DNA from: Anaerolineae bacterium
GTDB lineage: Bacteria; Chloroflexota; Anaerolineae; VGOG01
NCBI GenBank assembly: GCA_034431315.1
Contig: DAOUDK010000004.1
Location: forward strand, 15,975-79,974
Direction: 5' to 3'
Length of the DNA stretch: 64,000 nt
Positions 2,233 to 36,388 of the stretch are shown one piece after another. Made by a program: the position numbers and the translations under genes. The notes under the pieces are model-generated. The model had not been told where the DNA came from, ran no database searches, and worked only from the letters and a program-made list of their open reading frames with translations. Numbering within the stretch: position 1 is the stretch's first letter; each line of letters starts with the position of its first letter.

Positions 2233-3265
2233 GAAACACTACAACGAATTTAGAAAGGAACGAATTGGGGCTGCTGGATAGCCGGGCTTCGTCGTGATCT
2301 CAGCCGAATGGCATGGGAGCCCGGTCTGTTTACCCTACACTACAACGAGTTAGGATAGAGCGAATTAGGGAGTAGGAACCATGCCCAAGCTTATACACCC
2401 TGAACTTAGTTACCGGGTGCGCGGTGTACTCCTCAATGTGTACAACGACCTTGGCCCTATGCTCAAGGAAGAGTACCACAGGGATGCTATTGTACTTGGG
2501 CTGGAGGAACACAGCATTGTCTGTGAACCGGAGAAAGCCTTTGAAGTCTATTACAGAGATGAACGCGTTGGCCTGTACTATGTGGACGTGTGGATTGAGG
2601 ACGGCAAGATCTTGCTCGAGATCAAAGTTGTGCTTGCCATTGAACCTATTCACAAGGCACAAGCCATCTCGTATCTGAAAGTAACCGACGCTGACTTGGC
2701 AATCGTTGTCAACTACGGTGGTCCTTCCCTGGAGGACGAGCGGCTGCCCAACTTCTTACGCGACAAGCAACCAGAGTTTGTCTGGCGACCGCAGCCTGTC
2801 GCCCAAGGGTTGCTCTATCCTGATTTGGTAAATGCCATCCAACGTGCCTGCCACCGCGTTCATTTCACCCTGGGGCCGGGATTCTTGCATCAAGTCTACC
2901 GACGAGCTACGATGATCGAGTTACGTCGCAGCGGCCTCAGCTACGAGTACATCAAAAAGTTGCCTGTGGAATACAAAGGCCAGCTTTTGGGCTACCAGGA
3001 CGTCCGTCTAATCCTGGTAGAAGGCAAGGTGCTGCTCGCCACTTTCGCCCTTCGCCAGACCGAAGATGCCATGGCCGAACAACTCAAGGCGCACTTGCGT
3101 CGCCTGGGCCTTAAACTTGGCCTGCTGGCGAATTTCTACGGCGCCAGACTGGTCATAACGCCAGTTCGGGTCAAATAGGAGACAACAACGAATTTGGAAA
3201 TAAGCGAATTGGGAAGGGAAATGGATGAGATAATTCGTTTTATTCCAAATTCGTTGTAGTGTTTC
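2233..3265 (+). mobile_element. Putative GxxExxY cassette bounded by 34-bp terminal inverted repeats
   Basis: 2233-2266 and the reverse complement of 3232-3265 match at 30/34 positions. Extra forward copies of the motif occur at about 2337-2367 and 3184-3210. Confidence 0.55.
2381..3178 (+). CDS. GxxExxY protein (PD-(D/E)xK-like), tandem two-domain form
   Basis: Two repeats of the GxxExxY fold (GPMLKEEYH; GPGFLHQVY). The first keeps D..E-I-K (VDVWIEDGKILLEIK); the second has lost it (LILVEGKVLLATFA). Confidence 0.85.
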   Translation: MPKLIHPELSYRVRGVLLNVYNDLGPMLKEEYHRDAIVLGLEEHSIVCEPEKAFEVYYRDERVGLYYVDVWIEDGKILLEIKVVLAIEPIHKAQAISYLKVTDADLAIVVNYGGPSLEDERLPNFLRDKQPEFVWRPQPVAQGLLYPDLVNAIQRACHRVHFTLGPGFLHQVYRRATMIELRRSGLSYEYIKKLPVEYKGQLLGYQDVRLILVEGKVLLATFALRQTEDAMAEQLKAHLRRLGLKLGLLANFYGARLVITPVRVK

Positions 3266-5787: not shown

Positions 5788-5830
5788 CCGATCAGGTGAA
5801 ATTGCTGTCTGTTTTGGGAGGTACACAGTA

Positions 5831-8800: not shown

Positions 8801-8860
8801 TCCCTTGATGAACTGGTGGCCCAGGCGGATAGAGCGATGTACGAGCAGAAAAAGGGCTAG
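5831..8860 (+). CDS. Diguanylate cyclase: DUF3365 c-type heme sensor, PAS, 2x GAF, PAS, GGDEF
   Basis: TM-flanked DUF3365 domain with CLKCH; PAS ending in DITERK; GAF AIENA motifs; intact GGDEF with RESD I-site. Start at ATG 5831 after GGGAGGT. Confidence 0.92.
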   Translation: MKDQDKTKEQLINNPEKSRARFPQWERYAWVLAVVWTVVVAASLVWNVVQVRHNTLEAARIQARVAHGKDVIYRRWNAGYGGVYVPVTEVTKPNPYLSDLPERDITTPSGKLLTLMNPAYMTRQVHELAEEEYGVRGHITSLKPIRPENAPDPWETEALQAFECGETEISSVEEMEGEEYMRLMRPLITEKGCLKCHAAQGYQEGDIRGGISVSIPVEPLWTVARMQVFTLAGGHAMLWLMGLGGIVLGTQRLRRNERERRRAKEALRDSEERYRDLFENASDLIQSVALDGHLVYVNRAWRETLGYDEEEIASLSLFDIIHPDSQAHCMEVFQRVTSGEEVDNVEAVFVSKDGKEIAVEGAANCKFVDGKPIYTRGIFRDITERKRAEEEIKRRAAQAALAYEVGQRVSAKLEPDELLSEIVTAVRDAFDYYGVMMLLLDDKAEYLTLQSIAGGYINIFPEDLRLAVGEGMIGYAAASGETQVSGDVSKDPHYVRKAKEETKSELAVPIKSGQKVIGVLDLQSNEFDAFDETDVMLIETLTGQIAVAIENAQLYEETQQRALEQETLREAALALTTALDRSEVIDRILAQLQRVVPYDSASVQLLQGDRLVIIGGHGFPNLPDLLGITFPANGDNPNSEVIRTRASFIVEDAPAVYEAFREDPHRQAVIRSWLGVPLLVGERLVGMIALDKCEPGFYTQQHARLAEAFAAQGAIAIENARLFEEIEERRLYLETVLGAAPDAIVTLDDRFQVVEWNAGAERLFGYSREEAVGQHLDHLVTSPDVLKEAIGFTQRVLGGKELPPTEAVRYRKDGSPVDVIVAGSPIFVGDELIGAVAVYTDITARVRMEETLRALALLDELTDLYNRRGFFTLGQQQLKAAQRGKRRMALLFADFNGLKQINDAFGHPEGDRALIETAEVLEETFRESDIIARIGGDEFAVLAIETNGSPAEVLIHRLRENLEARNARGDRPYELSLSVGLAHYDPEAPCSLDELVAQADRAMYEQKKG

Positions 8861-8910
8861 GGCTCGGTCGGAGACCTTCGCCCAACGAGGTGGTTTAGGA
8901 GGTGCATAAG

Positions 8911-11901
8911 GTGAAAGACCAGGGTAAGACCCAAGAGCGGCTTATAAACGAACTGGCAGAGTTGCGCCAACGGGTCGCCGAGTTGGAAGCGGCGGATACC
9001 GAACAGGTGCGGGCGGAGAGGGCGCTGCAGGAGAGCGAGGAGAAATATCGGACCATGATCGAACAGTCCAATGACATGATCTGGACCTTGGACACGGAGG
9101 GCAGTCTTACTTTCTTTAACAAGCGCTCCGAGGAAATCAGCGGTCACCGATTCGAGGATTGGCGGGGCAAATCCTTCGCGCCGCTCATTGTGGAAGAAGA
9201 CTTGCCGCTTGTGGTGGACGTATTCCGTAGAACCCTGAACGGAGAGCCCCAGCACTACGAAGTGCGAGTGAGAAAAGAGGATGGGGACATTTTCACTCTC
9301 TCCGTCAATACCGCTCCCATCCTGGAAGCAGGTAAAGTCGTTGGCACTGTCAGTTTCGGGCGCGACATCACCGAGCGAGTGCAAGCGGGGAAGTCGCTGC
9401 GGGAGAGCGAGGAACGTTTCCAACAAGTAGCAGAAAATGCTCAGGAATGGATCTGGGAAGTAGATGCCCACGGTTTATATACCTATGCAAGTCCAGTAGT
9501 GGAAAAGATACTTGATTATAAACCCGAAGAAGTTGTGGGAAAAAAACACTTCTATGACCTATTCCATCCTGAGGATCGGGAAGAATTCAAGAAGGCAGCG
9601 TTTGAGGTGTTTGCCCAAAAGCAGCCTTTCCGCGAATTCACAAACCGGAATGTGCGCCAGGATGGCGAAACAGTCTGGCTCTCGACAAGCGGAGTTCCCA
9701 TACTCGATGAGGAGGGAACCCTTCTCGGATACAGAGGCGCAGACACAGACATCACCGAGCGCAAGCGGGCGGAGAGAGCGTTAGAGCGGCGGGCGAGCCA
9801 GTTGGCCACGGTGGGCGAGATTGGGCGGCAGATCGCTTCTATCCTCGACCGCGATGAGTTGCTGCACCAGATGGCGAACCTGCTAGAAGATGTCTTTGGC
9901 TATCGCTATGCTTACATCTTTTTGCTTGATGAAGACTCAGATGAGTTAGTGCTCAGAGCAGGGGCAGGGCCCGGAAGGCTGCTCGAAGGCACGCGGATTG
10001 CAGTTGAGGCGAGGTCAATCAACGCTTGGGTGGCGAGGACTGGCAAGCCCCTCCTGGCCAACGATGTTGCCAGGGAGCCTATGTATCTCCATCTTGAGGA
10101 GGTAGCAGATACAAAGTCGGAGTTGACGGTTCCCATCAAGGTCAAGGACCAGGTCATAGGAACGCTGGACGTTCAGAGCACGGAGCTTTACGCTTTCGAT
10201 GAGAGCGACCTGTTCACCCTTCAAGCCCTGGCCAGCCAGGCAGGGATCGCCATTGAGAACGCGCGGCTCTACGAGGAGACGAAGCGCCGCGCTGAGGAGA
10301 TGACCAGTGTGTACAACATCAGTGTCGCCACCACCTCCACCCTCAGCCTGGATGAGGTGCTGAAGTCGGTCTGCGAGCAGGTCAGCCGCTTGATGGAGGT
10401 GTCCAGCTTCTACATCGCCCTCTACGATGCAGGTAGGGAGGAGCTATCTTTCGAGTTGGCCCTTGATGAGGGGGTGCCCGTGGAGAAGTTCACCCGCAAG
10501 CTGGCCGACGGTGCCGGCCTGAGCGGGTGGATCGTCCAGTCGAAGCAGTCCCTCCTGATCAGGGACGCGGAGAGAGAGGAGTTCCCGGTGGGGGCCATCG
10601 TTGTCGGTTTGCCGGCCCGCTCCTGGCTGGGCGTGCCCCTCTTGTACATGGACCAGGTGGTGGGCGTTATGGGCGTGCAGAGCTACCAGCCCCACGCCTT
10701 CGACGAGAACGACCAGCAGCTCCTGTCTACCATCGCTGCCCAGGTAGCCATCGCTATCGAGAACGCGCGGCTCTTCGCCGAAACCAATGGAAGGACCAAC
10801 GACCTGGCTCTTCTCCTCGGCACCAGCACCGCCATCTCCTCCACCCTCGACCTGGATCAGATCCTGAAAACTGTGGCCCGACAGATCATCACCTCGCTGG
10901 TGGCCACCTTGTGCCGCATCACCTTACTGGATGAGGCAGGGGAGAATCTGGTCATCCGTGCTGTTTACCCCATTCGAGAACAGGAAGCGCAAGATGACCT
11001 CGGCCGGCGATTCCCCCTGGCCATGGTCCCCTGGCACAGGCAGGTGATCGAGACCGGCCAGCCGGTCGTCCTGCGCCAGGACGTGCCAGAGTTGGCCCTG
11101 TCGGACGAGGAGCGCAAGCTGGCCCTGACCGAGGGGGTGAAATCGGCCGCTCTGATTCCCTTGATCGTGGGGGGACGAGTGCTGGGCGTTATCTCCCTGG
11201 CAGAGGAACGGGACTGGGAGCGCAGCCCCTTCACCCCGGAGAAAGTAGCGCTTTGCCAGAGTATCGCCGCCCAGGCAGCGGTGGCCATCGAGAACGCCCA
11301 CCTGTACGAGGAACTCCAGCAAAGCTTCATTCAGACCATCGCTGCCCTGGCTGCGGCAGTGGACGCCAAGGATCCCTACACCGGCGGCCATTCCCAGCGC
11401 ACCACGGAGTTGGCTGCGGCCATTGCCCAGGAACTGGGGTTGGACGACGAGGAGGTCGAGTTGATCCGCTATGCCTGCCTATTGCATGACGTGGGCAAGA
11501 TCGGCATCAGCGAGGAGATCCTGCTCAAGCCAGGACCCCTGAATGCGGAGGAGTGGGAAGTAGTCCGCAGGCATCCCGCTCTTGGTGCTAGCATCGTGGA
11601 GAGGGCTGCTTTGCTATACGAGATGGTGCCGATTATTCTGCACCATCACGAGCGCTACGATGGTCAGGGCTATCCGGAGGGATTGAGGGGAGAGGACATT
11701 CCCTTCAAAGCTCGCATCCTGGCGGTGGCCGATGCCTACGAGGCCATGACGTCCGACCGGGCCTACCGGCCGGCCATGACGGTGCAGCAGGCTCTGGCCA
11801 CCTTGCGGGAGGGGGCGGACAGGCAGTGGGATGGCAAGGTGGTGGAGGTTCTTAACAGGATCATCCGAGAACAAGACTCAGTGGATCCAAAATCGCTCTG
11901 A
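8911..11901 (+). CDS. HD-GYP c-di-GMP phosphodiesterase: 2x PAS, 3x GAF, HD-GYP
   Basis: LLHDVGKI and HHERYDGQGYP. Start at GTG 8911, 7 nt after AGGAGGT. Confidence 0.92.
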   Translation: MKDQGKTQERLINELAELRQRVAELEAADTEQVRAERALQESEEKYRTMIEQSNDMIWTLDTEGSLTFFNKRSEEISGHRFEDWRGKSFAPLIVEEDLPLVVDVFRRTLNGEPQHYEVRVRKEDGDIFTLSVNTAPILEAGKVVGTVSFGRDITERVQAGKSLRESEERFQQVAENAQEWIWEVDAHGLYTYASPVVEKILDYKPEEVVGKKHFYDLFHPEDREEFKKAAFEVFAQKQPFREFTNRNVRQDGETVWLSTSGVPILDEEGTLLGYRGADTDITERKRAERALERRASQLATVGEIGRQIASILDRDELLHQMANLLEDVFGYRYAYIFLLDEDSDELVLRAGAGPGRLLEGTRIAVEARSINAWVARTGKPLLANDVAREPMYLHLEEVADTKSELTVPIKVKDQVIGTLDVQSTELYAFDESDLFTLQALASQAGIAIENARLYEETKRRAEEMTSVYNISVATTSTLSLDEVLKSVCEQVSRLMEVSSFYIALYDAGREELSFELALDEGVPVEKFTRKLADGAGLSGWIVQSKQSLLIRDAEREEFPVGAIVVGLPARSWLGVPLLYMDQVVGVMGVQSYQPHAFDENDQQLLSTIAAQVAIAIENARLFAETNGRTNDLALLLGTSTAISSTLDLDQILKTVARQIITSLVATLCRITLLDEAGENLVIRAVYPIREQEAQDDLGRRFPLAMVPWHRQVIETGQPVVLRQDVPELALSDEERKLALTEGVKSAALIPLIVGGRVLGVISLAEERDWERSPFTPEKVALCQSIAAQAAVAIENAHLYEELQQSFIQTIAALAAAVDAKDPYTGGHSQRTTELAAAIAQELGLDDEEVELIRYACLLHDVGKIGISEEILLKPGPLNAEEWEVVRRHPALGASIVERAALLYEMVPIILHHHERYDGQGYPEGLRGEDIPFKARILAVADAYEAMTSDRAYRPAMTVQQALATLREGADRQWDGKVVEVLNRIIREQDSVDPKSL

Positions 11902-11956
11902 GGGGATTGTCAAATCCCCGCTTTTCGCCTGGATCTGACGATCCAGGCCGAGCAGA
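11887..11956. repeat. 70-bp double-hairpin dispersed repeat, copy 1
   Basis: 62/70 identical to 37481-37550. Confidence 0.9.
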
Positions 11957-11993
11957 ATTGGATCTACTGAGACTATTGTGAGGAGGTAGAGAG

Positions 11994-13349
11994 ATGAAAA
12001 AGCCGCATCTTGTTCTAACTTTGGCGTTGGCCCTGGGTTTGTTGGTGGGCCTGACCACAGGCGCCACTGTTTCGGCTGCCTATCCCGGCAAGAAGATCCA
12101 GATTCCCAGCATCAACGTCGAGAATGGCTGGAGCACCTGGATAAATGCGCAGAACGTGGGGGATGACGATACCGGGGCGGTTGTTTTCTTCTGGGGGGAG
12201 TATTCGGAACAGTGTCCACCCAATTCTCCTGGCCCCGCCGCAGTCATGTGTCAGACAATCGTCCAGCACGGCGTTTGGACGCTGCGAAGTGTTATCCCCA
12301 CCGAGGCCAAGGCGGCCATCATCTACTCGGTAGACAAGGACGTCTTCGATGAAGCCTGCCGGGATGCCGTTGACGCCATCGGCGACGACTCCGCCTGGAC
12401 GCAGTGGAAAGCTGCCTACCAGGGCACCGGCCAGCCCCTGGCAGTGGGTGTTATGCGCTTTGGCCCCAACGGCTCTTCCAGCGACTACGTTGGCATCTCT
12501 GAGGCCATGGAGGGGGAGTATCCCTATGGGTACTATGCTCTCCTTCTTAAGAAAGAGTACCAGGGCCAGAACGCCCAGCTTTCCATTCAGAACTCAGGCC
12601 GATACTGCGTCTCCGTCTTGGTCGAGTACAGAGAAAGCGACACCTGTCAGCTCGTCCACACCCAGCACTTCGAGGCGCTGGCGCCAGGTGAGGCCTTGCA
12701 TCTGAAGATGGAGGACATTGAGGCGATACCCACCAACTGGCTGGGGACAGCGTTCGTCACGGCGAGCCAACCGCTGGGAGTCGTCGTGGAGCATAGCAAC
12801 GTCCCGCCAACTCCCACCAGCACGGCAACACCGACCCCCACCCCCACCCCCACGCCAACGCCGACTCCAACGGGCACGTCAATGCCGACGGCTACGCTTA
12901 CCAGCACCCCAACGCCGACTCCCACTGGCACGACCACGACGGCCACTGCTACATCCACAGCAACTGCTACACCTACGGTGATCGTAGCTGCAAATTTCGA
13001 TGTGTATATACCTCTCGTCATCAAAGAGCCCAGCCCTGAACCTACAGTGAGTAACTTGCACATGAGTAGTGCTCCTTATGGCCCGCCCGTGACCCAATTC
13101 CCGCCGGGGACAGCCGTCGTCTACGCGGTCTTCAGCTATTCTTACATGCAGGACGACGAGATCAGGGTAAGGGTTCATGACCAGGTAGGCCGTCTCTTAT
13201 TCGAACAGATTGAGACTTATACAGGCTCTGGGACAGAGTCTATAGAGGTATCGGGTCCCGAGGGAGCCTTCCCCGATGGGCGGTATCTTACCATTTTGTA
13301 CAGAGGTTTGTGGCCGATTGAGACTATCCTCTGGGATGTGGGCAGTTAG
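11994..13349 (+). CDS. Secreted protein of unknown function with a Thr/Pro-rich linker and an internal VYIPLV motif
   Basis: Signal peptide, beta-rich N-domain, (TP)n linker, FDVYIPLVIK, small C-terminal beta domain. Confidence 0.75.
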   Translation: MKKPHLVLTLALALGLLVGLTTGATVSAAYPGKKIQIPSINVENGWSTWINAQNVGDDDTGAVVFFWGEYSEQCPPNSPGPAAVMCQTIVQHGVWTLRSVIPTEAKAAIIYSVDKDVFDEACRDAVDAIGDDSAWTQWKAAYQGTGQPLAVGVMRFGPNGSSSDYVGISEAMEGEYPYGYYALLLKKEYQGQNAQLSIQNSGRYCVSVLVEYRESDTCQLVHTQHFEALAPGEALHLKMEDIEAIPTNWLGTAFVTASQPLGVVVEHSNVPPTPTSTATPTPTPTPTPTPTPTGTSMPTATLTSTPTPTPTGTTTTATATSTATATPTVIVAANFDVYIPLVIKEPSPEPTVSNLHMSSAPYGPPVTQFPPGTAVVYAVFSYSYMQDDEIRVRVHDQVGRLLFEQIETYTGSGTESIEVSGPEGAFPDGRYLTILYRGLWPIETILWDVGS

Positions 13350-13354
13350 TGAGC

Positions 13355-13383
13355 TTGCCTTTCTCACGTGCAGTGAGTATAAT
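13355..13383 (+). promoter_or_regulatory. Sigma70-type promoter
   Basis: TTGCCT-17 nt-TATAAT upstream of acyP. Confidence 0.75.
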
Positions 13384-13406
13384 ACTTTTGGCCGAGGTGA
13401 TGAGAC

Positions 13407-13685
13407 ATGGCTAAGAAAAGAGCCCACGTCTTCGTCAGCGGTTGGGTGCAGGGCGTCTTCTTCCGGGGCGAGACCCGCGATCTAGCCCGTCAGTTGGGCG
13501 TGACCGGCTGGGTCAGGAACCTGTGGGACGGAAGGGTGGAGGCCGTCTTCGAGGGGGAGGACTGGGCCGTCGAGCGGCTGGTAGCCTGGTGCCACCGCGG
13601 GCCGCGCGGGGCGCACGTGGATGATGTTGACGTAACTTATGAGGACTACACCGGAGAGTACGGGACTTTCAGCGTGCGCTATTGA
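13407..13685 (+). CDS. acyP: Acylphosphatase
   Basis: VSGWVQGVFFR and GVTGWVRNLWDGRVE signature motifs. Confidence 0.95.
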   Translation: MAKKRAHVFVSGWVQGVFFRGETRDLARQLGVTGWVRNLWDGRVEAVFEGEDWAVERLVAWCHRGPRGAHVDDVDVTYEDYTGEYGTFSVRY

Positions 13686-13705
13686 AGGCTGTGAAGGGTG
13701 ATGGT

Positions 13706-13771
13706 ATATGACAGCGAATCAAGAGGATTGACCGAATTCCATTCGGTAAATCCTTGAATTCGTTGTCATAT
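13706..13771. repeat. Palindromic element of the ACAACGAAT family
   Basis: Arms atatgacagcgaatcaagaggattgaccgaat / attcggtaaatccttgaattcgttgtcatat. Confidence 0.8.
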
Positions 13772-13812
13772 TTTCATGCGTTCCACAAATAAAACTCAAG
13801 GAGGAAGCAGCA

Positions 13813-14763
13813 ATGAAAATGGACAAGGTTTCACAAGCAATGGAGAAGGTGGGCATACCCGGCCGGGATGCCTACGATCTCCCCACCAGCCCGAAGCGTT
13901 TTCCCGACGGGGCCTGGTACCGGATGGAAATCTCCGGCATCGAACGCCCCAAAGTGCTGGAGGCCGTCATTGACGAGTCGCAGAAGCGGAACATGCCCAT
14001 CCACCGCTTGATCTCGGTGGTGATGGGGGCCACCCTTTTGGACAAGGCGGAGCTCAAAGACTTCGCCCAGATGGCCGCTGACGCCAGGATGGAGGTCATC
14101 CTGACCCCTGGCCCGCGCTCTGCCTGGGACACGGGGCGGCAGTTGGTCACTCCAGAGGGGGGGCTCTCCGGCCTGCGCTTCCGTGGCTCCGACCAGTTGC
14201 AGCAAGTCATCACCGATATCATGACCTGCATTGATATCGGCTTTCGGGGCTTCCTGGTAATTGACGAGGGGCTGCTCTGGCTCCTCAACGAGCTGAGGAA
14301 AAACGGCGACATCCCGGAGGACGTGGTCTTCAAGGTCTCCATCTATGCCGGCCATGCCTCGGCCGCGGGAGGCAGGGTGCTGCAAATGCTGGGGGCGGGC
14401 ACGTTTAACCCCGTGGCCGACCTCAGCCTGCCCCAGTTCGCTTCCATCCGGCAGGCCATTGACATCCCGCTGGATATCCACATCATTCTCACCGAGTCCT
14501 TCGGCGGATACATCCGCATCTACGATGGCCCGGAGATGGCTCGCCTGTGTGCGCCCTGCTACTTCAAGATCGAGCCGGGCCCGGCGTGCGCGGCCGGGCC
14601 GGGGGCTCTCTACAAGCCGTGGGTGGATGAGGGGATGTTGGCCGATTGGGGCCGCGTGAAAGTGAAATACGCCCAGATCATCCACGAGATCATCCAGGAG
14701 AACTTCCCTGAGGCCACGATGTCGGAGCTGGGGCCTGCGGATCTGGCCATACCGAAGCCATAG
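13813..14763 (+). CDS. Conserved hypothetical protein, probably a U32-peptidase-like TIM barrel
   Basis: LPTSPKRFPDGAWYRMEISG N-terminus resembles proteins I recall being annotated U32-like. The canonical four-Cys U32 motif is not visible, so the family call is tentative; the ORF itself is solid (GGAGG RBS, 316 aa). Confidence 0.5.
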   Translation: MKMDKVSQAMEKVGIPGRDAYDLPTSPKRFPDGAWYRMEISGIERPKVLEAVIDESQKRNMPIHRLISVVMGATLLDKAELKDFAQMAADARMEVILTPGPRSAWDTGRQLVTPEGGLSGLRFRGSDQLQQVITDIMTCIDIGFRGFLVIDEGLLWLLNELRKNGDIPEDVVFKVSIYAGHASAAGGRVLQMLGAGTFNPVADLSLPQFASIRQAIDIPLDIHIILTESFGGYIRIYDGPEMARLCAPCYFKIEPGPACAAGPGALYKPWVDEGMLADWGRVKVKYAQIIHEIIQENFPEATMSELGPADLAIPKP

Positions 14764-14776
14764 GCAGAAAGCGTTC

Positions 14777-14874
14777 AGGTGCCAGGCACTTTCATCGGCT
14801 TCTTCGGGGCCATAGTGCCTCCAGGCCAGGCAAGCTTACTCAATCAGTCGGCTATTTGCAAGTGCCTGGCACCT
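14777..14874. repeat. Palindromic element with AGGTGCCAGGCACTT termini
   Basis: Perfect 15-bp inverted repeat, 14777-14791 / 14860-14874. Confidence 0.85.
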
Positions 14875-14896
14875 TGATTGAAAAGGAGCAATGCGC

Positions 14897-16336
14897 ATGA
14901 GCAATGTATCGCAGCAAAGCAAGCTACCCTTCCCCCCCGGCGTCTTCCCCGCCCTGGTGACGCCTTTCGACAAGGACGAGGAAGTGGACGAGAGCGCGTT
15001 TCGCGGGCTCATCCGCCACGTGATTGATGACGTGGACGGGCTGGTGCCCTGCGGCACCACTGGCGAGTTTCCCTACCTGTCGGTGGAAGAGCAGAAGCGG
15101 CTGGTGGAGATCGCCGTCGAGGAATCGCAAGGCAAGCCTGTTATCGCCGGCACAGGGGCTCCCTCGACTCGCCAGGCTATCGAACTGGCGAGAAACGCCA
15201 AAGAGGCCGGAGCCAGCGCGTGCCTGGTGGTGACGCCCTACTTCCTTCACCCCTCGGACAAGGGCATCTACCAGCACTTCTACGAGCTCGCCCAGGCGGT
15301 GGACATCCCCATCATCCTGTACAACATCCCCCAGGTGGTGGACGCCTACTTGCCCCGCACCGTCGTCGAGGACCTGGCCGACGTTGACAACATCGTGGCC
15401 CTGAAGGACTCCTCCGGCAATCTGACCTACACCATGGAAGTGCTGGAGATGGTGCAGGGGCGCATTGACGTTTTCATCGGCCACGACGAGGTGGTGCTGC
15501 CCGCCCTGGCCGGGGGCTGCTCTGGGATGATCCTGGCCAGCGCCAACGTCTTCCCTGAGGTCTGGCAGCGGGTCTTGGAGGCAGTGCGGGAGGGCGATTT
15601 GGCTACTGCTCGAAAGTGGCAGATGAGGGTGCAGAAACTGGCCCGCATCTTCTGCCGTCACGGCGGCGGAGTGGCAGTCAAGGCGGCCCTCAACATAATG
15701 GGGGTCAAGGTCGGACGGCCGCGCCGCCCGCTGAAGTCCACGGGCGGGGCTTTGATCCATGAGACGCGAGCCGAGATCCGAATGGAGCTGGAGAAGTTGG
15801 GCAAGATCGAAATCCAAAGCTCAAAGTTCAAAATCCAAAGCGGGGCATTGCAGGAGCGGTTTGGGGATTTGGGATTGACGGCGGAGGTGATTCGGGATGC
15901 CGGACTGCGGATGGGGACTGGGTCGGCGGGGGAGGGGGCGGAGTGGGTGCAGCTCGATCTGGTGGCCGGGCCGAAGGCGGGGCCGCTGGGCGATGCCTAC
16001 GCCTATCAACTGACCTATCCCCTCCATCGTCGCGAGGCACTGACCACCATCCTGGAGCCGAACCTCACCGTGCGGCCGTCAACGCTGATCTTGCCTGCGC
16101 TGGAGCAGAAAAACCTGCGCCAGGCCAACATGATCTACGGGCCGACCCAGGCAGCAGTGGCCAAGGCCATCGTGGACGCTTTGGAGCGGGCTGTGATCCC
16201 GGTGGCGGCCATGGACGAGGAGGTGATGATCGTCCTGGCCACAGTGGATCCAAAGGCCCTGGATCGCCACGCTCTCTACCAGAACGTGTACGCGGCGATG
16301 GGGGAGGCCATCAAAAAGGCTTTCGGTGGCCCATGA
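14897..16336 (+). CDS. DapA-family class I aldolase fused to a degenerate Fae-like domain
   Basis: FPALVTPF, GTTGE, ILYNIP, Schiff-base ALKDSSG. The C-terminal ~140 aa resemble Fae (LDLVAGPKAGPLG, PNLTVRPSTLILP, MIYGPTQAAVAKAIVD), but AHIDL appears as VQLDL. Start at ATG 14897 by RBS spacing. Confidence 0.85.
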   Translation: MSNVSQQSKLPFPPGVFPALVTPFDKDEEVDESAFRGLIRHVIDDVDGLVPCGTTGEFPYLSVEEQKRLVEIAVEESQGKPVIAGTGAPSTRQAIELARNAKEAGASACLVVTPYFLHPSDKGIYQHFYELAQAVDIPIILYNIPQVVDAYLPRTVVEDLADVDNIVALKDSSGNLTYTMEVLEMVQGRIDVFIGHDEVVLPALAGGCSGMILASANVFPEVWQRVLEAVREGDLATARKWQMRVQKLARIFCRHGGGVAVKAALNIMGVKVGRPRRPLKSTGGALIHETRAEIRMELEKLGKIEIQSSKFKIQSGALQERFGDLGLTAEVIRDAGLRMGTGSAGEGAEWVQLDLVAGPKAGPLGDAYAYQLTYPLHRREALTTILEPNLTVRPSTLILPALEQKNLRQANMIYGPTQAAVAKAIVDALERAVIPVAAMDEEVMIVLATVDPKALDRHALYQNVYAAMGEAIKKAFGGP

Positions 16337-16459
16337 GCCGCGGGGCATAGCCGTTTGTTGGGTAATGAGTCAACGAGTAATGTGTTAACGAGGTACTCGT
16401 TATCTATCAACTTTCCTTAACAAATTTCATAGCACGTCAAAGCGGGGGGATGAGTGGAA

Positions 16460-16548
16460 CTGTCAACGGATTCGGGGAGCGGATTGAACGGATTAGGGCT
16501 CCGTGCGTGGCATCTTCCGTTCAATCCGTTCCAAAAATCCGCTGACAG
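16460..16548. repeat. Palindromic element (CTGTCAACGGATT termini)
   Basis: 33-nt arms at 16460-16492 and 16516-16548, 28/33 complementary. Confidence 0.8.
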
Positions 16549-16608
16549 TGTTCTGCATCTTCTATCCCCCCTGCTTTGGGGTGCTAAGACAAATTTGGAG
16601 GTAACATA

Positions 16609-16803
16609 ATGAGAGAATGTGAACAAGACAAGAACCTGGCCAAGTGCGCTTGCACCTACGAGCCTTGCAGCCGCAAGGGGCTATGCTGTGAGTGCATCAT
16701 GTACCACAAGCGATACGGCGAGTTGCCCGGCTGTCTGTTCCCGCCAGAGGTGGAGCGAACCTACGACCGCAGCATCGCCCGCTTCGTCAGCATCCACAAG
16801 TAG
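16609..16803 (+). CDS. Small Cys-rich protein, DUF6485-like
   Basis: CACTYEPCSRKGLCCECIMYH...LPGCLFP...ERTYDRSI; 8 Cys in 64 aa; GGAGGT RBS. Confidence 0.75.
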   Translation: MRECEQDKNLAKCACTYEPCSRKGLCCECIMYHKRYGELPGCLFPPEVERTYDRSIARFVSIHK

Positions 16804-16806
16804 ACG

Positions 16807-16888
16807 TGTCATTGCGAGGCGCGGTTTTTGCGACGAAGCAATCCCCTCCATGGTGGAGATTGCTTCGCACAAACCGCTCGCAATGACA
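16807..16888. repeat. GTCATTGCGAG...CTCGCAATGAC palindromic element, copy 1
   Basis: Nested arms TGTCATTGCGAG/CTCGCAATGACA and CGAAGCAATC/GATTGCTTCG; second copy at 36309-36388. Confidence 0.9.
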
Positions 16889-16909
16889 CAGATCACAAAG
16901 GAGGCCATT

Positions 16910-18328
16910 GTGTCAAAGAAACCAGATTGGTTCAAAGGTATATTCCCGGCCTTGGTCACGCCCTTTACCAGGGATGACCGGGTTGACGAGGAGGCGTTTA
17001 GAGCTCTGATCCGCCACCTTCTGCCCCATGTGGATGGGGTGGTGCCGGTGGGCACTACCGGGGAGTTCGTGTACCTGTCGGAGACCGAGAAGCGGCTGGT
17101 GATTGATATCGCCGTTGACGAGGTGGGGGGCAGGGTGCCGGTGGTGGCCGGCACGGGATGCGCCAGCACGAGGGATACCGTAGCCCTGACTCGATACGCT
17201 CAGGGCGCCGGGGCTACGGCGGCCCTGGTGGTGGCGCCCTTCTACCTCAAACCCACCTTCAACGAGGTCTACGAGCACTACGAGGCGGTCAACGAAGTTG
17301 GCCTGCCCATCATCCTCTACAACATCCCCCAGTGCGCGGGCACCCACTTCAAGTGGTGGACGGCCGAGGGGATGGCTTACCTGGACAACGTGGTGGGCAT
17401 CAAAGATTCCAGCGGCGATATGCCCTTTCTGATGGCCCTGTTCGAGAAAGTCAAGGGGCAGATCGGCATCTTCTGCGGCCACGACGAGATAGTGATGGCT
17501 GCCCTGGCCGCTGGCGCCGACGGGGCCATCCTGGCCAGCGCGAATCTGATCCCCGATCTCTGGCAAAAGATCTATTCCGCTGTAAAGCAGGGGGATCTGG
17601 CCATGGCCCAGGATTGGCAGGCCAGGGTGCAGAAGCTGGTGCGCATCGTCGTGCGCAAGGGAGCTACCCAGGCGGTGAAAGAGGGCCTGCGGATGATGGG
17701 CCTGGATATGGGCAACTCCCGCCACCCCATCATGCCCGGCGGGGCCTTCGAGCGGGAGGACCGCGAGGAGCTGCGCATCCAGTTAGAGAACCTGGGCAAA
17801 ATCCAAATCCAAAGCTCAAAGCTCAAAATCCAAATTGAGGACTTCACCTTGCGCGTCGGGGAAGGCTTCTCTGGCCCGCCCTTCTTCGAGCTGGCTCACG
17901 TTGACCTGCTGCTGGGCGTCCGGGAGGGGCCGGTGGGCAGAGCTATCGCCAGGGCGTTGGGGGAGCCACGGCCTTCGCACGGACTGCGCGTCATCAACGA
18001 GCGGCCGCGCACGCTGCTGGTTCCGACCGTGACCGTGCGCACCAAGAAGCAGGCTGGTCACGTCTATGACGACGCCGCGCGCGGCATCAACCTGGCAATT
18101 GCGGCCAGCATTGAGGATGGCAGCCTTCCCCAGGGGGCCTTGGACGACCTGGCCATGATCGCCAACGTCTTCATCCATCCAGCCGCTGCCAACCGCAAGC
18201 GCATCGAGTTCAACAACTACAAGGCCATGCGCCACGCCATTCGCAAAGCCATCGAGGGCCGGCCGACCCTCGAAGAGTTGCTCAACGAGAAAGAAGCGGC
18301 TCGCCATCCCTTCAGATATGCGCCGTGA
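16910..18328 (+). CDS. DapA-family class I aldolase fused to a Fae-like domain
   Basis: GTTGE, ILYNIP, GIKDSSG. The C-terminus has ELAHVDLLLG, VFIHPAA, NNYKAMRHAIRKAIEGRP and HPF, all Fae hallmarks. Start at GTG 16910 after AAGGAGG. Confidence 0.88.
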   Translation: MSKKPDWFKGIFPALVTPFTRDDRVDEEAFRALIRHLLPHVDGVVPVGTTGEFVYLSETEKRLVIDIAVDEVGGRVPVVAGTGCASTRDTVALTRYAQGAGATAALVVAPFYLKPTFNEVYEHYEAVNEVGLPIILYNIPQCAGTHFKWWTAEGMAYLDNVVGIKDSSGDMPFLMALFEKVKGQIGIFCGHDEIVMAALAAGADGAILASANLIPDLWQKIYSAVKQGDLAMAQDWQARVQKLVRIVVRKGATQAVKEGLRMMGLDMGNSRHPIMPGGAFEREDREELRIQLENLGKIQIQSSKLKIQIEDFTLRVGEGFSGPPFFELAHVDLLLGVREGPVGRAIARALGEPRPSHGLRVINERPRTLLVPTVTVRTKKQAGHVYDDAARGINLAIAASIEDGSLPQGALDDLAMIANVFIHPAAANRKRIEFNNYKAMRHAIRKAIEGRPTLEELLNEKEAARHPFRYAP

Positions 18329-21648: not shown

Positions 21649-21699
21649 ATGGGCAGGCGCAGTGTTGCGCAAATTTTCCAAAGTAAGGAGGCAGCAACG

Positions 21700-22992
21700 A
21701 TGAGAAGACAAGTCAACCTGAGAGTGGAGGATTTGCCCCGTCGCTGGTACAATATCCTCCCCGATCTGCCTGAACCCCTCCCCCCGCCCAAGGATCCCGA
21801 GGAGGGGGAATCGAGGTTGGCCGCCCTGCCCAAGATGCTCCTGGCGGAGTGCCTGAAGCAGGATGCTTCAACTGAAAACTGGATTGACATCCCCGAAGGG
21901 CTCCAGGAGCTTTACGCCCAGGCCGGGAGGCCTCGCCCCCTCTTCCGAGCTGTGAATTTGGAGAAGAGGTTGGATACGCCGGCCCGGCTGTATTACAAGG
22001 CCGAGTTCTATAGCCCTACAGGCAGCCACAAAGTGAACACCGCCGTGGCTCAATGCTATTACGCCAGGCAGGAGGGGTACGAGCGGGTCACCACTGAGAC
22101 CGGAGCCGGGCAATGGGGGACGGCCCTGGCCTACGCGGCCAGCCTGGTGGGTCTGAAGTGCACCGTCTACTGGGTCAGGGCGGTGTATAATTGGAAGCAC
22201 GACCGCAGGAGCTTCATGCACCTTTTGGGCGCGGAGGTCAACGCCTCGCCCAGCCCTAAGACCGATTTCGGGAGGTCACTTTATGAGAAGGATCCAAACC
22301 ACCCCGGCTCCCTGGGCATCGCCATCTCTGAGGGCTTGGAGGACGCTCGAAAGGATCCCAAAGCCGTCTATTGCCTCGGCTCGGTGCTGAATCACGTCCT
22401 CCTCCACCAGACGATCATCGGGCTGGAGACCCAAAAGCAGTTCGAGATCTTCGACGACTATCCCGACGTGATGATCTCCTGCATAGGTGGGGGGTCGAAT
22501 TTCGGGGGCTTCGTCCTGCCCTTCGTGGGGGATGTCTTCAAAGAGGGGAAGAAGATACGCTTCATCGCCGCTCAGACCGAGGTGTCGCCGAATCTGCAGG
22601 GTGAGTACAGGTACGACTTCGCCGACCACGCCGAGACCACGCCCTTGCTCAAGATGTACACTTTGGGCCATAGGGCGGAGATGGAGCCCATCCGGGCCGA
22701 CGGGCTGAGGTATCACGGCTGCGCGCCCATCTTGAGCCTGCTCAGGCACCTGGGTTACATTGAGACGGTGGCCTATCCAGCGGACGAGCGATACGTCTTC
22801 GAAAGGGCCAAGATGTTCGTTCAAGCGGAGGGATACCTGCCCGCTCCCGAATCGGCCTACAGCATCGCCTGCGCCATTGACGAGGCGCTGAGGTGCAAAG
22901 AGGCCGGAGAGAGCAAAACCATCGCCTTCAACATATCAGGGCACGGGTTCATGGACATGCAGGGCTACAGGGAGGTTTTGGGCCTTCCGTAG
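21700..22992 (+). CDS. trpB2: Tryptophan synthase beta-like PLP enzyme (TrpB2)
   Basis: WYNILPDLP, PLP Lys in TGSHKVNTA, TETGAGQWG, GGGSN, PAPES; no trpA adjacent. Confidence 0.9.
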   Translation: MRRQVNLRVEDLPRRWYNILPDLPEPLPPPKDPEEGESRLAALPKMLLAECLKQDASTENWIDIPEGLQELYAQAGRPRPLFRAVNLEKRLDTPARLYYKAEFYSPTGSHKVNTAVAQCYYARQEGYERVTTETGAGQWGTALAYAASLVGLKCTVYWVRAVYNWKHDRRSFMHLLGAEVNASPSPKTDFGRSLYEKDPNHPGSLGIAISEGLEDARKDPKAVYCLGSVLNHVLLHQTIIGLETQKQFEIFDDYPDVMISCIGGGSNFGGFVLPFVGDVFKEGKKIRFIAAQTEVSPNLQGEYRYDFADHAETTPLLKMYTLGHRAEMEPIRADGLRYHGCAPILSLLRHLGYIETVAYPADERYVFERAKMFVQAEGYLPAPESAYSIACAIDEALRCKEAGESKTIAFNISGHGFMDMQGYREVLGLP

Positions 22993-23004: not shown

Positions 23005-23409
23005 ATGCAGGGAGTGGTTAAGCGGGAAGAGCCGGTTGGGCTGAGACATCTAACCAGCCGGGAAAAGGCAGCTTTATCAGAGTTCGTCGCTAGGCTGCGG
23101 GAGAGGTATGCTGACCAGGTCGTGCTGGTCACGCTTTTCGGCTCCAAGGTACGGGGCGATTTTGACGAGGAGTCGGACGTGGACGTGTTGGTGGTGGTGC
23201 AGAATGGCGATTGGCGCTTTCAGGATGAGGTTGCGTTGACCGCCTTCGAGCCGATGCTGGAGCATGATATTGTCATCACACCTCTGGTGATTGATCTGGA
23301 GCATTATCAATGGCTTCGGCAGTATCGGGCTCCTCTTTATCGCAACATCCGGGCGGAGGGACTAGACTTATGGACGAGAACACCCGCATCATCGTCGGCA
23401 TTCGCTTAG
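23005..23409 (+). CDS. Minimal nucleotidyltransferase (MNT) antitoxin 1
   Basis: GS-X10-DxD motif (FGSKVRGDFDEESDVD). Confidence 0.9.
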   Translation: MQGVVKREEPVGLRHLTSREKAALSEFVARLRERYADQVVLVTLFGSKVRGDFDEESDVDVLVVVQNGDWRFQDEVALTAFEPMLEHDIVITPLVIDLEHYQWLRQYRAPLYRNIRAEGLDLWTRTPASSSAFA

Positions 23410-23774
23410 AGAAAGCACGCCAGGATCTGGAGGCGGTGCGCCAATTGACTGACTCCGCCATGTACCGCATAGCCATCTCGCGTGCCTATTACGCCATTTT
23501 TGGGATGACTACGGCTGTTCTGTTGACTAAGGACATTGACCGTAGCAAACACTCTGGCGTCCAGGCCGCCTTTGGCCATTATCTCATAAAACCCGGGATC
23601 ATTGAACCTGAGTATGGCAAGATCTACTCGTTACTTCGGAGGGCCAGAGAGGAGAGCGATTACAGCGATTACTGCCAGTTCACCAAGGAGCGCGCCGAGA
23701 AGTTACTGACCGACGCCGAGGGGTTCGTAGCCCGAATGGAGCAGTATCTGAGAGAGGTGGGGGCAATAGAATGA
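23370..23774 (+). CDS. HEPN domain protein 1
   Basis: AISRAYYAIF, SKHSGV, REESDY; overlaps the MNT end; start at ATG 23370. Confidence 0.88.
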   Translation: MDENTRIIVGIRLEKARQDLEAVRQLTDSAMYRIAISRAYYAIFGMTTAVLLTKDIDRSKHSGVQAAFGHYLIKPGIIEPEYGKIYSLLRRAREESDYSDYCQFTKERAEKLLTDAEGFVARMEQYLREVGAIE

Positions 23775-36308: not shown

Positions 36309-36388
36309 TGTCATTGCGAGCGGAGCGAAGCAATCTCCAAGCGTGCTAGGGGATTGCTTCGGCGCAAACAGCGCGCCTCGCAATGACA
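36309..36388. repeat. GTCATTGCGAG...CTCGCAATGAC palindromic element, copy 2
   Basis: Same arms as 16807-16888, different central loop. Confidence 0.9.

Follow-up and report, generated by a model that had tools for sequence, protein, structure and literature searches.

Within the window, that is, the whole 64-kb stretch of Anaerolineae DNA that was analysed, two genes on the same strand (A and B) each encode a class I aldolase domain joined to a C-terminal Fae-like domain (Table 1). The earlier note had described them as aldolase-Fae fusions, and this was borne out by the Pfam search, which placed PF00701 (DHDPS) and PF08714 in both proteins. In A, these domains covered residues 17–283 (E 4e-75; ca. 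14939–15739) and 344–478 (E 3e-32; ca. 15920–16324), respectively, and in B they lay at ca. 16931–17773 (E 8e-76) and ca. 17855–18313 (E 6e-34). Shine-Dalgarno spacing in gene A was better at the second ATG (14897) than at 14891. The mechanically called ORF of gene B begins at GTG 16619; its true start is GTG 16910, which is preceded by AAGGAGG and is in line with the 472-aa database entry for the B protein (P0001). No published description of a DHDPS-type aldolase-Fae fusion was found in the literature, in agreement with the earlier statement that this architecture lacks a characterised example.

Table 1. Genes and sequence elements at the A/B locus (coordinates refer to the window)
Feature	Position	Strand	Description
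TIM316 (name given here)	13813..14763	+	316 aa; unnamed, highly conserved family; predicted (beta/alpha)8 barrel
Subunit A gene	14891..16336	+	481 aa; DHDPS/NAL-type class I aldolase domain, variable linker, A-type Fae-like domain
28-nt A/T-rich dispersed repeat	15812..15839	+	In frame within the A linker; encodes IQSSKFKIQ
Hairpin with 34-nt perfect-stem arms	16459..16549	.	A-DUF6485 spacer; RNA fold -57.8 kcal/mol, z = -7.5
DUF6485 mini-protein	16609..16803	+	64 aa, 8 Cys; PF20095, E 3.7e-7; GGAGG upstream
80-nt palindromic repeat (GTCATTGCGAG...CTCGCAATGAC)	16808..16887	.	Directly upstream of B; fold -50 kcal/mol, z = -8.3
Subunit B gene	16910..18328	+	DHDPS/NAL-type class I aldolase domain, short linker, B-type Fae-like domain with C-terminal RHPFRYAP arm
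28-nt repeat, second in-frame copy	17807..17834	+	Makes up the bulk of the shortened B linker; encodes IQSSKLKIQ

The aldolase domains share the (beta/alpha)8 barrel, GTTGE, the YNxP tyrosine and the Schiff-base lysine with DapA (TIGR00674) and the DHDPS/NAL superfamily (NanA, the YagE/YjhH KDG-type aldolases and HOGA), and they are 29%–32% identical to E. coli DapA. The catalytic residues named previously were all found, namely the GTTGE threonine (T56 in A, T49 in B), the YNIPQ tyrosine (Y144 and Y137) and the Schiff-base lysine of KDSSG (K172 and K165). In E. coli DapA numbering, these positions (Thr44/Thr45, Tyr133 and Lys161) were invariant in the 68 A-type and 78 B-type relatives compared. 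An ordinary DapA (4-hydroxy-tetrahydrodipicolinate synthase) of lysine biosynthesis carrying an accessory domain would agree with the TIGR00674 dapA equivalog scores (A: 228.9 bits, B: 204.9 bits, the latter just below the cutoff of 206.15), with the best PDB sequence matches, which were DapA structures, and with the label '4-hydroxy-tetrahydrodipicolinate synthase' given to many members by JGI and NCBI. However, Arg138, which binds the carboxylate of aspartate-semialdehyde in DapA, corresponds to V149 in A and C142 in B and was replaced by V, T, C, M or L in 146 of 146 relatives. Further differences from DapA are the conversion of the GDD motif to an invariant GHDE, the invariant Gln137 and Phe48, the C-terminal Fae domain and the obligate pairing, which would make no sense for lysine synthesis. 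Neither dapB nor any other lysine gene was present in any flank examined. Because the DapA arginine is absent from A, B and all 146 relatives, the two proteins are predicted not to be lysine-pathway enzymes, as the earlier note had argued from the same residue, and we consider the DapA explanation highly improbable.

The B aldolase domain was about equally similar to the DapA, NanA and YagE structures. Given this near equidistance, the A/B aldolase domains probably form a separate subfamily of the DHDPS/NAL superfamily. The NanA profile NF003164 returned 167 and 184.5 bits against a cutoff of 281, and the invariant GHDE resembles GxDE, which we take to be the sugar-binding signature of the N-acetylneuraminate lyase (NAL) subfamily. 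Together with Gln137, GHDE would create a very polar pocket, to which a larger hydroxy-aldehyde would be better fitted than formaldehyde. These features are consistent with an alternative in which A and B form a heteromeric 2-keto-3-deoxy/4-hydroxy-2-oxoacid aldolase acting on a larger polar aldehyde (NAL/KDG/HOGA/Pyr4H2C-deaminase type), with the Fae-like domains serving as a non-catalytic oligomerisation scaffold or ligand-sensing module, possibly one that binds a pterin. The state of the Fae domains, described below, bears directly on this alternative.

Sequence comparison matched the C-terminal domains of A and B to the solved Fae structure 1Y5Y (E 8e-20 and 2e-15, respectively). An AlphaFold model of the B Fae domain (pLDDT 86) gave TM scores of 0.80–0.84 against 1Y60 and 1Y5Y (1Y60: 0.84), and the next PDB match after the Fae structures had E > 1e-3. 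Judging from these sequence matches and from the fold as checked on the B model, both domains are real Fae homologues, and their Fae-like nature, as first proposed, was supported. They share a homologous fold and ca. 30% identity with the Fae of Methylorubrum extorquens (1Y5Y/1Y60; PF08714, TIGR03126); unlike that protein, they are not free-standing, and both have Thr in place of Lys71.

The losses within the two Fae domains were complementary. The reference set comprised 30 positions conserved in at least 85% of 22 Fae and Fae-Hps representatives, and 10 of the 30 were present in both subunits. E11, E19, A21, H22, A87, N134, P150 and the C-terminal HPF arm were found in B only, whereas P58, G85, Q88, A92 and D97 were found in A only. 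Subunit A carries Q354 at the invariant His22 position and lacks E11, A21, N134 and the arm, while it retains Gln88 (Q420) and the 58–62 loop. Conversely, B retains the His22 strand (H330), E11, N134 and the arm, has Ala at the Gln88 position and has lost the 58–62 loop. His22 was conserved in all 78 B-type sequences, and the combination of B His22 and A Gln88 occurred in 65/65 pairs; the complete invariant set, including these two residues, was present in neither chain alone and only in A and B combined. Against the TIGR03126 Fae equivalog-domain profile (NCBIfam; cutoff 118.05), B scored above the cutoff (131.5 bits) and A below it (110.9 bits). The A domain is unlikely to act as a stand-alone Fae because the invariant His is missing. 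Roles for His22, Gln88 and the C-terminal arm have reportedly been assigned in Fae; here, they were evaluated by their invariance across the 22 representatives.

Both Fae domains are under purifying selection, and neither is decaying, since median identity among orthologues across phyla was 60%–63% for each. The complementary halves suggest an A/B heteromer that might hold one composite pterin/formaldehyde site. That each domain alone lacks some family-invariant residues could also be expected of a non-catalytic module attached to a larger-aldehyde aldolase. However, losses that are precisely complementary, non-random and fixed in every pair, a B domain that keeps its His and passes the Fae cutoff, and conservation of both domains at the level usual for enzymes argue against that explanation, which we regard as unlikely. 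Solved Fae is a homopentamer. This assembly maps poorly onto an alternation of A and B or onto DHDPS tetramers, an observation that counts against the proposed heteromer.

A and B stood in tandem at essentially every locus examined. The pair was present in at least 502 species genomes; the hosts are uncultured bacteria and archaea, mostly Anaerolineae, with others in Thermoplasmatota, Bathyarchaeota, Asgard, Myxococcota and Desulfobacterota. A preceded B on the same strand in 64 of 80 loci, the remainder being interrupted by contig ends, and this order extended to the most divergent representatives and archaeal loci. The stop of A and the start of B overlapped or lay within 10 nt in 24 of 55 pairs. 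The two genes thus constitute an obligate, conserved pair. The tandem arrangement reported in the earlier note held in strand and order, but the genes are not directly adjacent here, as a DUF6485 mini-ORF and two hairpin repeats intervene. The idea of two equivalent enzymes was not upheld; A and B share 47% identity across their aldolase domains and 32% across their Fae domains, and they are best viewed as distinct, anciently diverged paralogues rather than redundant duplicates. Their pockets also differ at positions 138, 139, 208 and 248–250.

The gene upstream of A in the window, TIM316, had no match in Pfam, NCBIfam or PDB sequences. Its 1716 homologues all carry the label 'hypothetical', and identity was 78%–97% for the best 120 of them. 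Its AF2 model (pLDDT 76) shows alternating strands and helices with weak Foldseek matches to TIM barrels (TM ca. 0.5). TIM316 adjoins the A/B pair in 19–23 loci, including archaea-labelled, Asgard and Myxococcota loci, and two loci (L087 and L088) contain a tight TAL_FSA-TIM316-A-B operon. It is a candidate third component of the A/B system.

In other phyla, the genes around A and B connect the pair with C1-pterin and amino-acid/2-oxoacid metabolism. In Myxococcota, A and B are followed after a 13-nt gap by an amino-acid dehydrogenase gene, with TIM316, an EhuB-type transporter and MTHFR nearby and EctA adjacent. An Anaerolineae locus (L026) encodes an ABC transporter, an MttB-family methyltransferase and a corrinoid protein ahead of A and B, and two Desulfobacterota/Proteobacteria loci (L048 and L058) have the order IclR, A, B, MLE-type epimerase and MttB-family methyltransferase. 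An aminotransferase gene follows B in Aerophobetes, ThrC follows B in L023, and a RibD_C (DHFR-like) gene lies immediately upstream of the pair in a Thermoplasmatota locus (L093). These contexts are consistent with a keto-acid aldolase working at the formaldehyde level and fit loosely with a link to 4-hydroxy-2-oxobutanoate and homoserine, and several of them indicate folate, not H4MPT. Contexts with a C1 link were confined to about six lineages, and some could be due to chance because MttB families have expanded in sediment bacteria. In Anaerolineae and Thermoplasmatota, the pair mostly lies amid unrelated housekeeping genes. The window contained no folate genes, and neither it nor any flank examined yielded a gene of the H4MPT pathway, for which the earlier note had suggested a search.

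The same contexts bear on two of the alternatives. DHDPS-family aldolases or deaminases often receive their substrates from enolase-superfamily enzymes, and the MLE/enolase-superfamily gene after the pair in L048 and L058 would accord with a larger-aldehyde aldolase; the repeated adjacency of C1-folate and corrinoid genes speaks against it. Alternatively, the Fae-like module might be catalytic towards another partner, either a small aldehyde released by the aldolase (glyoxylate, glycolaldehyde or aminoacetaldehyde) or an N-methyl/iminium intermediate of demethylated betaines, making the pair a step in the anaerobic breakdown of quaternary amines or hydroxy amino acids. This would be compatible with the MttB-family methyltransferases, with or without a corrinoid protein, and the MLE-type epimerase in the operon of the pair, and with the EhuB-type compatible-solute transporter and EctA beside it in Myxococcota. 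In addition, A-type GTTGEFPYL is similar to GSNGEFPFL, presumably the motif of 4-hydroxy-2-oxoglutarate aldolase, and the A/B pocket differences suggest two different ligands. However, the supporting contexts are few, no betaine or amine gene adjoins the pair in most genomes, and we know of no Fae-family protein that acts on anything besides formaldehyde and H4MPT. We consider this alternative rather improbable, although less so than a lysine-pathway role.

Our preferred reading, to which we give about an even chance, is that A and B are the two subunits of one heteromeric bifunctional enzyme for reversible hydroxymethyl transfer between a 2-oxoacid and a tetrahydropterin. In general terms, a keto acid and a folate-like carrier probably exchange a one-carbon unit through this pair. 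In each aldolase domain, pyruvate or another 2-oxoacid would be bound to the lysine as a Schiff base, and a flexible linker would tether the domain to the Fae-like domain of its subunit. With B contributing the His22 strand, N134 and the C-terminal arm and A the Gln88 helix and the 58–62 loop, one full Fae-type site for tetrahydropterin and formaldehyde might be rebuilt only at the A/B interface. The enzyme could then reversibly convert a 2-oxoacid enamine and 5,10-methylene-tetrahydropterin to a 4-hydroxy-2-oxoacid and tetrahydropterin, with formaldehyde being passed between the aldolase and Fae sites and not set free. In the simplest case, pyruvate would be interconverted with 4-hydroxy-2-oxobutanoate, from which homoserine could be reached via an aminotransferase or dehydrogenase; in bacterial hosts, tetrahydrofolate would be a more likely carrier than H4MPT. 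The assembly of A and B into a heteromer, the site shared between them, the choice of formaldehyde as aldehyde, the particular 2-oxoacid and carrier used, and the direction in which the reaction runs in the cell are all inferred.

The proposed chemistry would resemble that of PanB and archaeal Fae-Hps, built from different parts. Fae-Hps couples a formaldehyde-releasing aldolase to Fae, and the A/B proteins likewise carry Fae and a putative formaldehyde-releasing or formaldehyde-consuming aldolase on one polypeptide; the shared logic would be the coupling of aldol chemistry to a pterin C1 carrier while avoiding free formaldehyde. However, the Fae-Hps profile NF009833 (cutoff 274) matched only the Fae parts of A (99.6 bits) and B (90.5 bits). 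Its partner domain is the Mg-dependent Hps with an OMP-decarboxylase fold, in contrast to the DHDPS/NAL Schiff-base barrel of A/B, and the Fae domain is N-terminal in Fae-Hps and C-terminal in A/B. Unlike Fae-Hps, the A/B system is made of two paralogues whose Fae domains are each incomplete and complement one another, and it occurs in some bacterial hosts for which the window and the flanks examined yielded no H4MPT genes. PanB (3-methyl-2-oxobutanoate hydroxymethyltransferase) moves a hydroxymethyl group from methylene-THF to a 2-oxoacid, so that the proposed net reaction type, transfer of hydroxymethyl from a methylene-tetrahydropterin to C3 of a 2-oxoacid, would be the same. The likeness would be one of function only, as PanB is a metal-dependent member of the PEP-mutase/isocitrate-lyase superfamily without homology to A/B, and Pfam and NCBIfam profiles detected no such domain in either protein. 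If the proposal is correct, the pair would represent a natural aldolase-to-pterin coupling that applies the Fae-Hps principle with a new partner domain and in two-subunit form.

The spacers and linkers at this locus carry several repeats. The DUF6485 gene separates A from B in 19 loci; most other lineages lack it, and their A and B genes abut. The hairpin upstream of the DUF6485 gene matched no Rfam family at the gathering score, and a match to an Rfam miRNA model was judged spurious. A second copy of the 80-nt palindromic repeat was found at 36310–36387 (0 expected), and an upstream in-frame ATG of gene B (16883) falls inside the copy next to B. In orthologues beyond the closest clade, the A linker is different and longer. 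The 28-nt repeat occurs three times in the window (2114, 15812 and 17807), compared with 0 expected.

Two neighbouring genes, A and B, each encode a DHDPS/NAL-type aldolase barrel (Pfam PF00701) followed by a Fae-like domain (PF08714), with E-values of 1e-32 to 1e-76 and agreement from NCBIfam. The earlier note had described them as tandem DapA-aldolase/Fae fusions and had proposed a profile search; this search returned the two families in that order in both proteins, and with the start of B corrected, the coordinates and motifs of the note proved right. The mechanically called ORF of B opens at GTG 16619, and this stretch overlaps both the ORF of DUF6485, a small protein encoded between A and B, and a palindromic repeat, which additionally introduces a deceptive ATG, in frame, at 16883. 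The true start is GTG 16910, which lies 5 nt past AAGGAGG and yields a 472-aa protein, the same as the database protein for this sequence. The C-terminal domains, called Fae-like in the note, turned out to be true Fae homologues: both matched the PDB chain of Methylorubrum extorquens Fae (E = 8e-20 and 2e-15), and the AlphaFold model of the B domain (pLDDT 86, pTM 0.84) aligned with 1Y60/1Y5Y at a TM-score of 0.80–0.84 and an rmsd of 2.7 Å, the next PDB match having E > 1e-3.

Features of the A/B locus, with positions in the window
Feature	Position	Strand	Basis
TIM316 ORF, 316 aa	13813-14763	+	ORF
Gene A	14891-16336	+	Pfam DHDPS + Fae
A–DUF6485 spacer, 272 nt, containing a long hairpin	after A		sequence
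Cys-rich ORF (DUF6485), 64 aa, 8 Cys	16609-16803	+	ORF
Palindromic repeat, 80 nt	16808-16887		repeat search
Gene B	16910-18328	+	start GTG 16910
M28 peptidase gene	downstream of B	+	ORF order

When each species was represented by one genome, the scan found relatives in at least 502 genomes. The best 80 of these loci, all from MAGs, came mostly from Anaerolineae and other Chloroflexota and, according to record labels, also from Thermoplasmata/Methanomassiliicoccales, Bathyarchaeota, Baldrarchaeum (Asgard), Myxococcota, Thermodesulfobacteriota, Aerophobetes and Spirochaetota; these lineage labels are record titles, and some may be wrong (e.g., 3.6–5.2 Mb chromosomes titled ‘Thermoplasmata’). No cultured carrier was present among the best matches of the protein searches and the species-genome scan, and the fused pair was not found on PLSDB plasmids. 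Among 1.84 billion cluster representatives, 413 clusters belonged to the Fae superfamily, and the fused form of ca. 470–500 aa was one of its main architectures. Each sequence could be assigned clearly to either an A type or a B type, with A followed by B on the same strand in 64 of the 80 loci and the remaining loci cut by contig ends; the tandem was also found in the most divergent representatives and in archaeal loci. Where nothing intervenes, the A stop and B start overlapped or lay at most 10 nt apart (24 of 55 measured pairs). Between A and B, the barrels were 47% and the Fae domains 32% identical; among orthologues of either type across phyla, the corresponding values were 68%–69% and 60%–63%. 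This combination of A–B divergence and orthologue conservation indicates that the duplication is old and that purifying selection acts on both Fae domains. A and B are a conserved pair rather than a local duplication. Their database names are inconsistent (DapA or Fae).

The barrels were compared using 68 A-type and 78 B-type sequences gathered from the 80 loci, with residues numbered after an E. coli DapA reference whose motifs were cross-checked against an alignment to solved DHDPS structures. In that alignment, A has YNIPQVV and B has YNIPQCA opposite the DHDPS motif YNIPSRT. Thr44, Thr45, Tyr133, Lys161 and Gly186 were invariant, as were Gln137 and Phe48, and an invariant G-H-D-E occupied the place of G-D-D in DapA. 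Arg at position 138 was found in none of the 146 sequences, which extends to these relatives the observation of the earlier note that the Arg following YNxP in DHDPS is absent from both proteins. Against the NCBIfam dapA equivalog, A scored 228.9 (cutoff, 206.15) and B 204.9; the score of A, above the cutoff, reflects the common barrel, and the B barrel showed about equal similarity to DapA and to the structures of NanA and YagE. The two barrels are therefore placed in a separate subfamily within the DHDPS/NAL superfamily.

The Fae-like domains were evaluated against 22 intact representatives of free-standing Fae and Fae-Hps, in which 30 positions were at least 85% conserved. Ten of the 30, mostly Gly, Pro or Ala, were retained in both A and B. 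The others were divided: E11, E19, A21, H22, A87, N134 and P150 were retained in B only, together with a C-terminal arm ending in RHPFRYAP, and P58, G85, Q88, A92 and D97 were retained in A only, loop 58–62 being deleted in B. Across the 65 pairs, position 22 was His in every B (H330 of B) and position 88 was Gln in every A (Q420 of A); position 22 of A was Gln, Gly or Ser in 60 of the 65, and no B had Gln at 88. In Fae, methylene-H4MPT reportedly sits in the cleft between neighbouring subunits, with His22 as the proposed acid catalyst; Gln88 is said to flip, and the C-terminal arm to gain order, upon cofactor binding. The complementary residue pattern is what a composite A/B site would predict, that is, the two Fae-like domains would pair and rebuild one full inter-subunit site, the reciprocal site having decayed. 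If so, the division of a putative active site over two paralogous fusion proteins would be a clear case of subfunctionalisation. Tyr106/Tyr107 had also been considered as a sign of a tight A/B dimer and were dropped, as the pattern was mixed across pairs and alignment-dependent. By these residue tests, the A/B locus is not DapA, and it is not a self-sufficient Fae either.

The 64-kb window contained neither H4MPT nor folate C1 genes and resembles the genome of a peptide- and sugar-using Anaerolineae bacterium. When 127 flanking proteins were pooled and scanned with Pfam, no common neighbour emerged, and no H4MPT gene was among the 25 families listed; the only recurrent partners were DUF6485 and TIM316, an unnamed protein family encoded upstream of A. 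Several individual contexts were more informative, those of L026, L048 and L090 being the richest operon settings. In Myxococcota (L090/L017 and L027), the series opened with EctA, encoded on the opposite strand, and continued with A, B, a Glu/Leu/Phe/Val-type amino-acid dehydrogenase gene 13 nt past B, and TIM316; L090/L017 alone had, beyond TIM316, an EhuB-type ABC transporter and MTHFR. The L090 context (6983-16982) is beside a transposase, and its MTHFR occupies two ORFs (230 and 92 aa), whereas the MTHFR of a second contig is intact (320 aa). An Anaerolineae locus (L026, 325-8818) encodes, on one strand, a Liv-type ABC transporter, an MttB-family methyltransferase, a corrinoid protein (assigned by eye from its DxHxxG motif), A and B. 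In Thermodesulfobacteriota (L048, 5550-12484) and Proteobacteria (L058), IclR precedes A and B, which are followed by an MLE-subgroup enolase-superfamily enzyme and then by an MttB-family protein nearest to glycine-betaine methyltransferase. Furthermore, B was followed by a class I/II aminotransferase in Aerophobetes (L075) and, after 56 nt, by threonine synthase in L023, and a RibD_C (dihydrofolate-reductase-like) gene was immediately upstream of A in Thermoplasmatota (L093). These contexts are few, yet independent, since the MttB proteins beside the pair are only 35%–37% identical to each other. They share two themes: a C1 pool on folate or corrinoid, and amino acid/2-oxoacid interconversion.

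Other neighbours were given little or no weight. In one Anaerolineales group, SAH hydrolase, TrmO-like, CBS-like PALP and ThrC genes close to the pair suggested a sulfur/methionine theme, which reflects synteny within a single lineage. Aldolase_II and IF-2B genes in Thermoplasmatota and a fuculose-type cluster in L001 were in separate transcription units and were judged unrelated. In the window itself, a TrpB-like PLP enzyme of the uncharacterised TIGR01415/PRK12391 family (577–584 bits) is encoded at 21649-22992, ca. 3 kb downstream of B, a position conserved in the closest relatives only (four loci).

Together, A and B may form one enzyme coupling 2-oxoacid aldol chemistry to tetrahydropterin C1 exchange, the reading that we consider the most probable, at about even odds. 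A 2-oxoacid held on the DHDPS-like barrel as a Schiff-base enamine would accept or release a C1 unit at the formaldehyde level, and the composite Fae-like site would exchange this unit with a tetrahydropterin, giving methylene-pterin + 2-oxoacid <-> pterin + 4-hydroxy-2-oxoacid as the net reaction. Pyruvate/4-hydroxy-2-oxobutanoate is the simplest substrate pair and, through homoserine, agrees with the neighbouring dehydrogenase, aminotransferase and ThrC genes, although we still consider this particular pair rather unlikely. The 4-hydroxyl or a portion of the pterin could be accommodated by the polar GHDE/Gln137 pocket. The same pocket might just as well point to a larger hydroxy-aldehyde as the substrate, its invariant GHDE resembling the GxDE motif of the NAL subfamily; this main rival is rather unlikely in our estimate. 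Returning to the pterin-coupled reaction, the favoured carrier is tetrahydrofolate (THF), at least in bacteria, because of the MTHFR/corrinoid contexts and the bacterial hosts with no H4MPT genes seen in the regions examined. To our knowledge, Fae has been reported solely with H4MPT. In its most specific form, the proposal is that A/B is a natural pterin-dependent pyruvate hydroxymethyltransferase whose split Fae-like module uses THF in bacteria (5,10-methylene-THF + pyruvate <-> THF + 4-hydroxy-2-oxobutanoate), which we offer as a doubtful but specific possibility.

We know of fusions between Fae and a formaldehyde-producing aldolase for one aldolase family only (the archaeal Fae-Hps) and with H4MPT only. 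The A/B locus keeps the principle of Fae fused to an aldolase, although it is not a Fae-Hps member, and represents a second, unrelated aldolase family fused to Fae, as a conserved, putatively two-subunit system; similarly, its proposed net chemistry resembles that of PanB, although it is not a PanB member. Literature searches, including those on Chloroflexi/Anaerolineae, found no paper on a Fae–DHDPS fusion architecture. The importance of the pair rests on the carrier. Spontaneous formaldehyde–THF condensation is too slow in vivo for growth, and a THF-accepting Fae variant has been speculated to exist (He et al. 2020, PMC7073904). The A/B family is a concrete candidate for such a variant, and THF use, if true, would answer the question raised in that study. 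A THF-dependent pyruvate hydroxymethyltransferase would be the first known case of formaldehyde/THF condensation being catalysed by an enzyme, and would give the engineered homoserine cycle a counterpart in nature. With pyruvate as the keto acid, the pair would provide a natural C1 + C3 -> C4 route to amino-acid skeletons, useful for synthetic methylotrophy, and with THF as the carrier, it would tie the C1 pool (methyl-corrinoid/MTHFR or Wood–Ljungdahl) directly to homoserine, threonine and methionine. At a minimum, annotation pipelines should drop the DapA name for these proteins.

TIM316 had 1716 homologues, the best 120 of which were 78%–97% identical, and contained many invariant His, Asp, Glu, Cys and Lys residues. 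A TIM-barrel fold is predicted for it; Foldseek comparison of its model gave generic TIM-barrel matches only (TM ca. 0.5), single-sequence and profile searches found no match among PDB sequences, and no Pfam or NCBIfam model matched. Its similarity to 415- and 422-aa proteins without Pfam domains upstream of the pair elsewhere was weak (hhalign probability, 67%–79%). TIM316 adjoined the pair in 19–23 loci from Chloroflexota, archaea-labelled records, Asgard and Myxococcota, including a tight TAL_FSA–TIM316–A–B operon in L087/L088, and is a good target in its own right because it accompanies A/B across phyla. DUF6485 was found between A and B in 19 loci of one Anaerolineae subclade; this mini-protein may bind a metal or Fe–S cluster.

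Repeats may also have shaped the locus. A 28-nt A/T-rich repeat (ATCCAAAGCTCAAAGYTCAAAATCCAAA) occurs in three copies (2114-2141, 15812-15839 and 17807-17834) against zero expected. The copy at 2114 contributes one arm to a strong hairpin (−31.6 kcal/mol, z = −6.5), and those in A and B are single arms, in frame, that constitute the inter-domain linker IQSSK[FL]KIQ; orthologues outside the closest clade have a longer, unrelated linker there. It looks as if a small dispersed element or gene conversion rewrote both linkers. The 80-nt palindrome between DUF6485 and B, with the ends GTCATTGCGAG...CTCGCAATGAC, has a second copy at 36310-36387; this MITE/REP-like element has a predicted folding energy of −50 kcal/mol (z = −8.3). 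The hairpin in the A–DUF6485 spacer (16459-16549) is unique, with 34-nt arms (−57.8 kcal/mol, z = −7.5), no Rfam family and no T-tract. Across the whole window, no riboswitch or other RNA matched Rfam at the gathering score, the only matches being spurious ones of miRNA models to hairpins.

Several other genes in the window deserve mention. Two adjacent giant PAS/GAF multi-domain sensors (5681-8860 and 8902-11901), one closing with GGDEF (diguanylate cyclase), the other with HD-GYP/HD_5 (phosphodiesterase), look like a paired make-and-break module for c-di-GMP. A secreted 451-aa protein (11994-13349) has no Pfam match and contains a long Pro/Thr-rich (TPTPTP) linker that gives rise to spurious antisense ORFs. 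A 154-aa HEPN-domain protein (23310-23774) and a protein with two PD-(D/E)XK (PDDEXK_3) repeats (2381-3178) are encoded by small defence- or toxin-like genes unrelated to A/B. Finally, an unusual 794-aa fusion, joining an OppC-type ABC permease (OppC_N + BPD_transp_1) to an M28 peptidase domain at the C terminus, is encoded on the minus strand (29384-31768), among several Opp/Dpp peptide-transporter clusters (ca. 29–51 kb).
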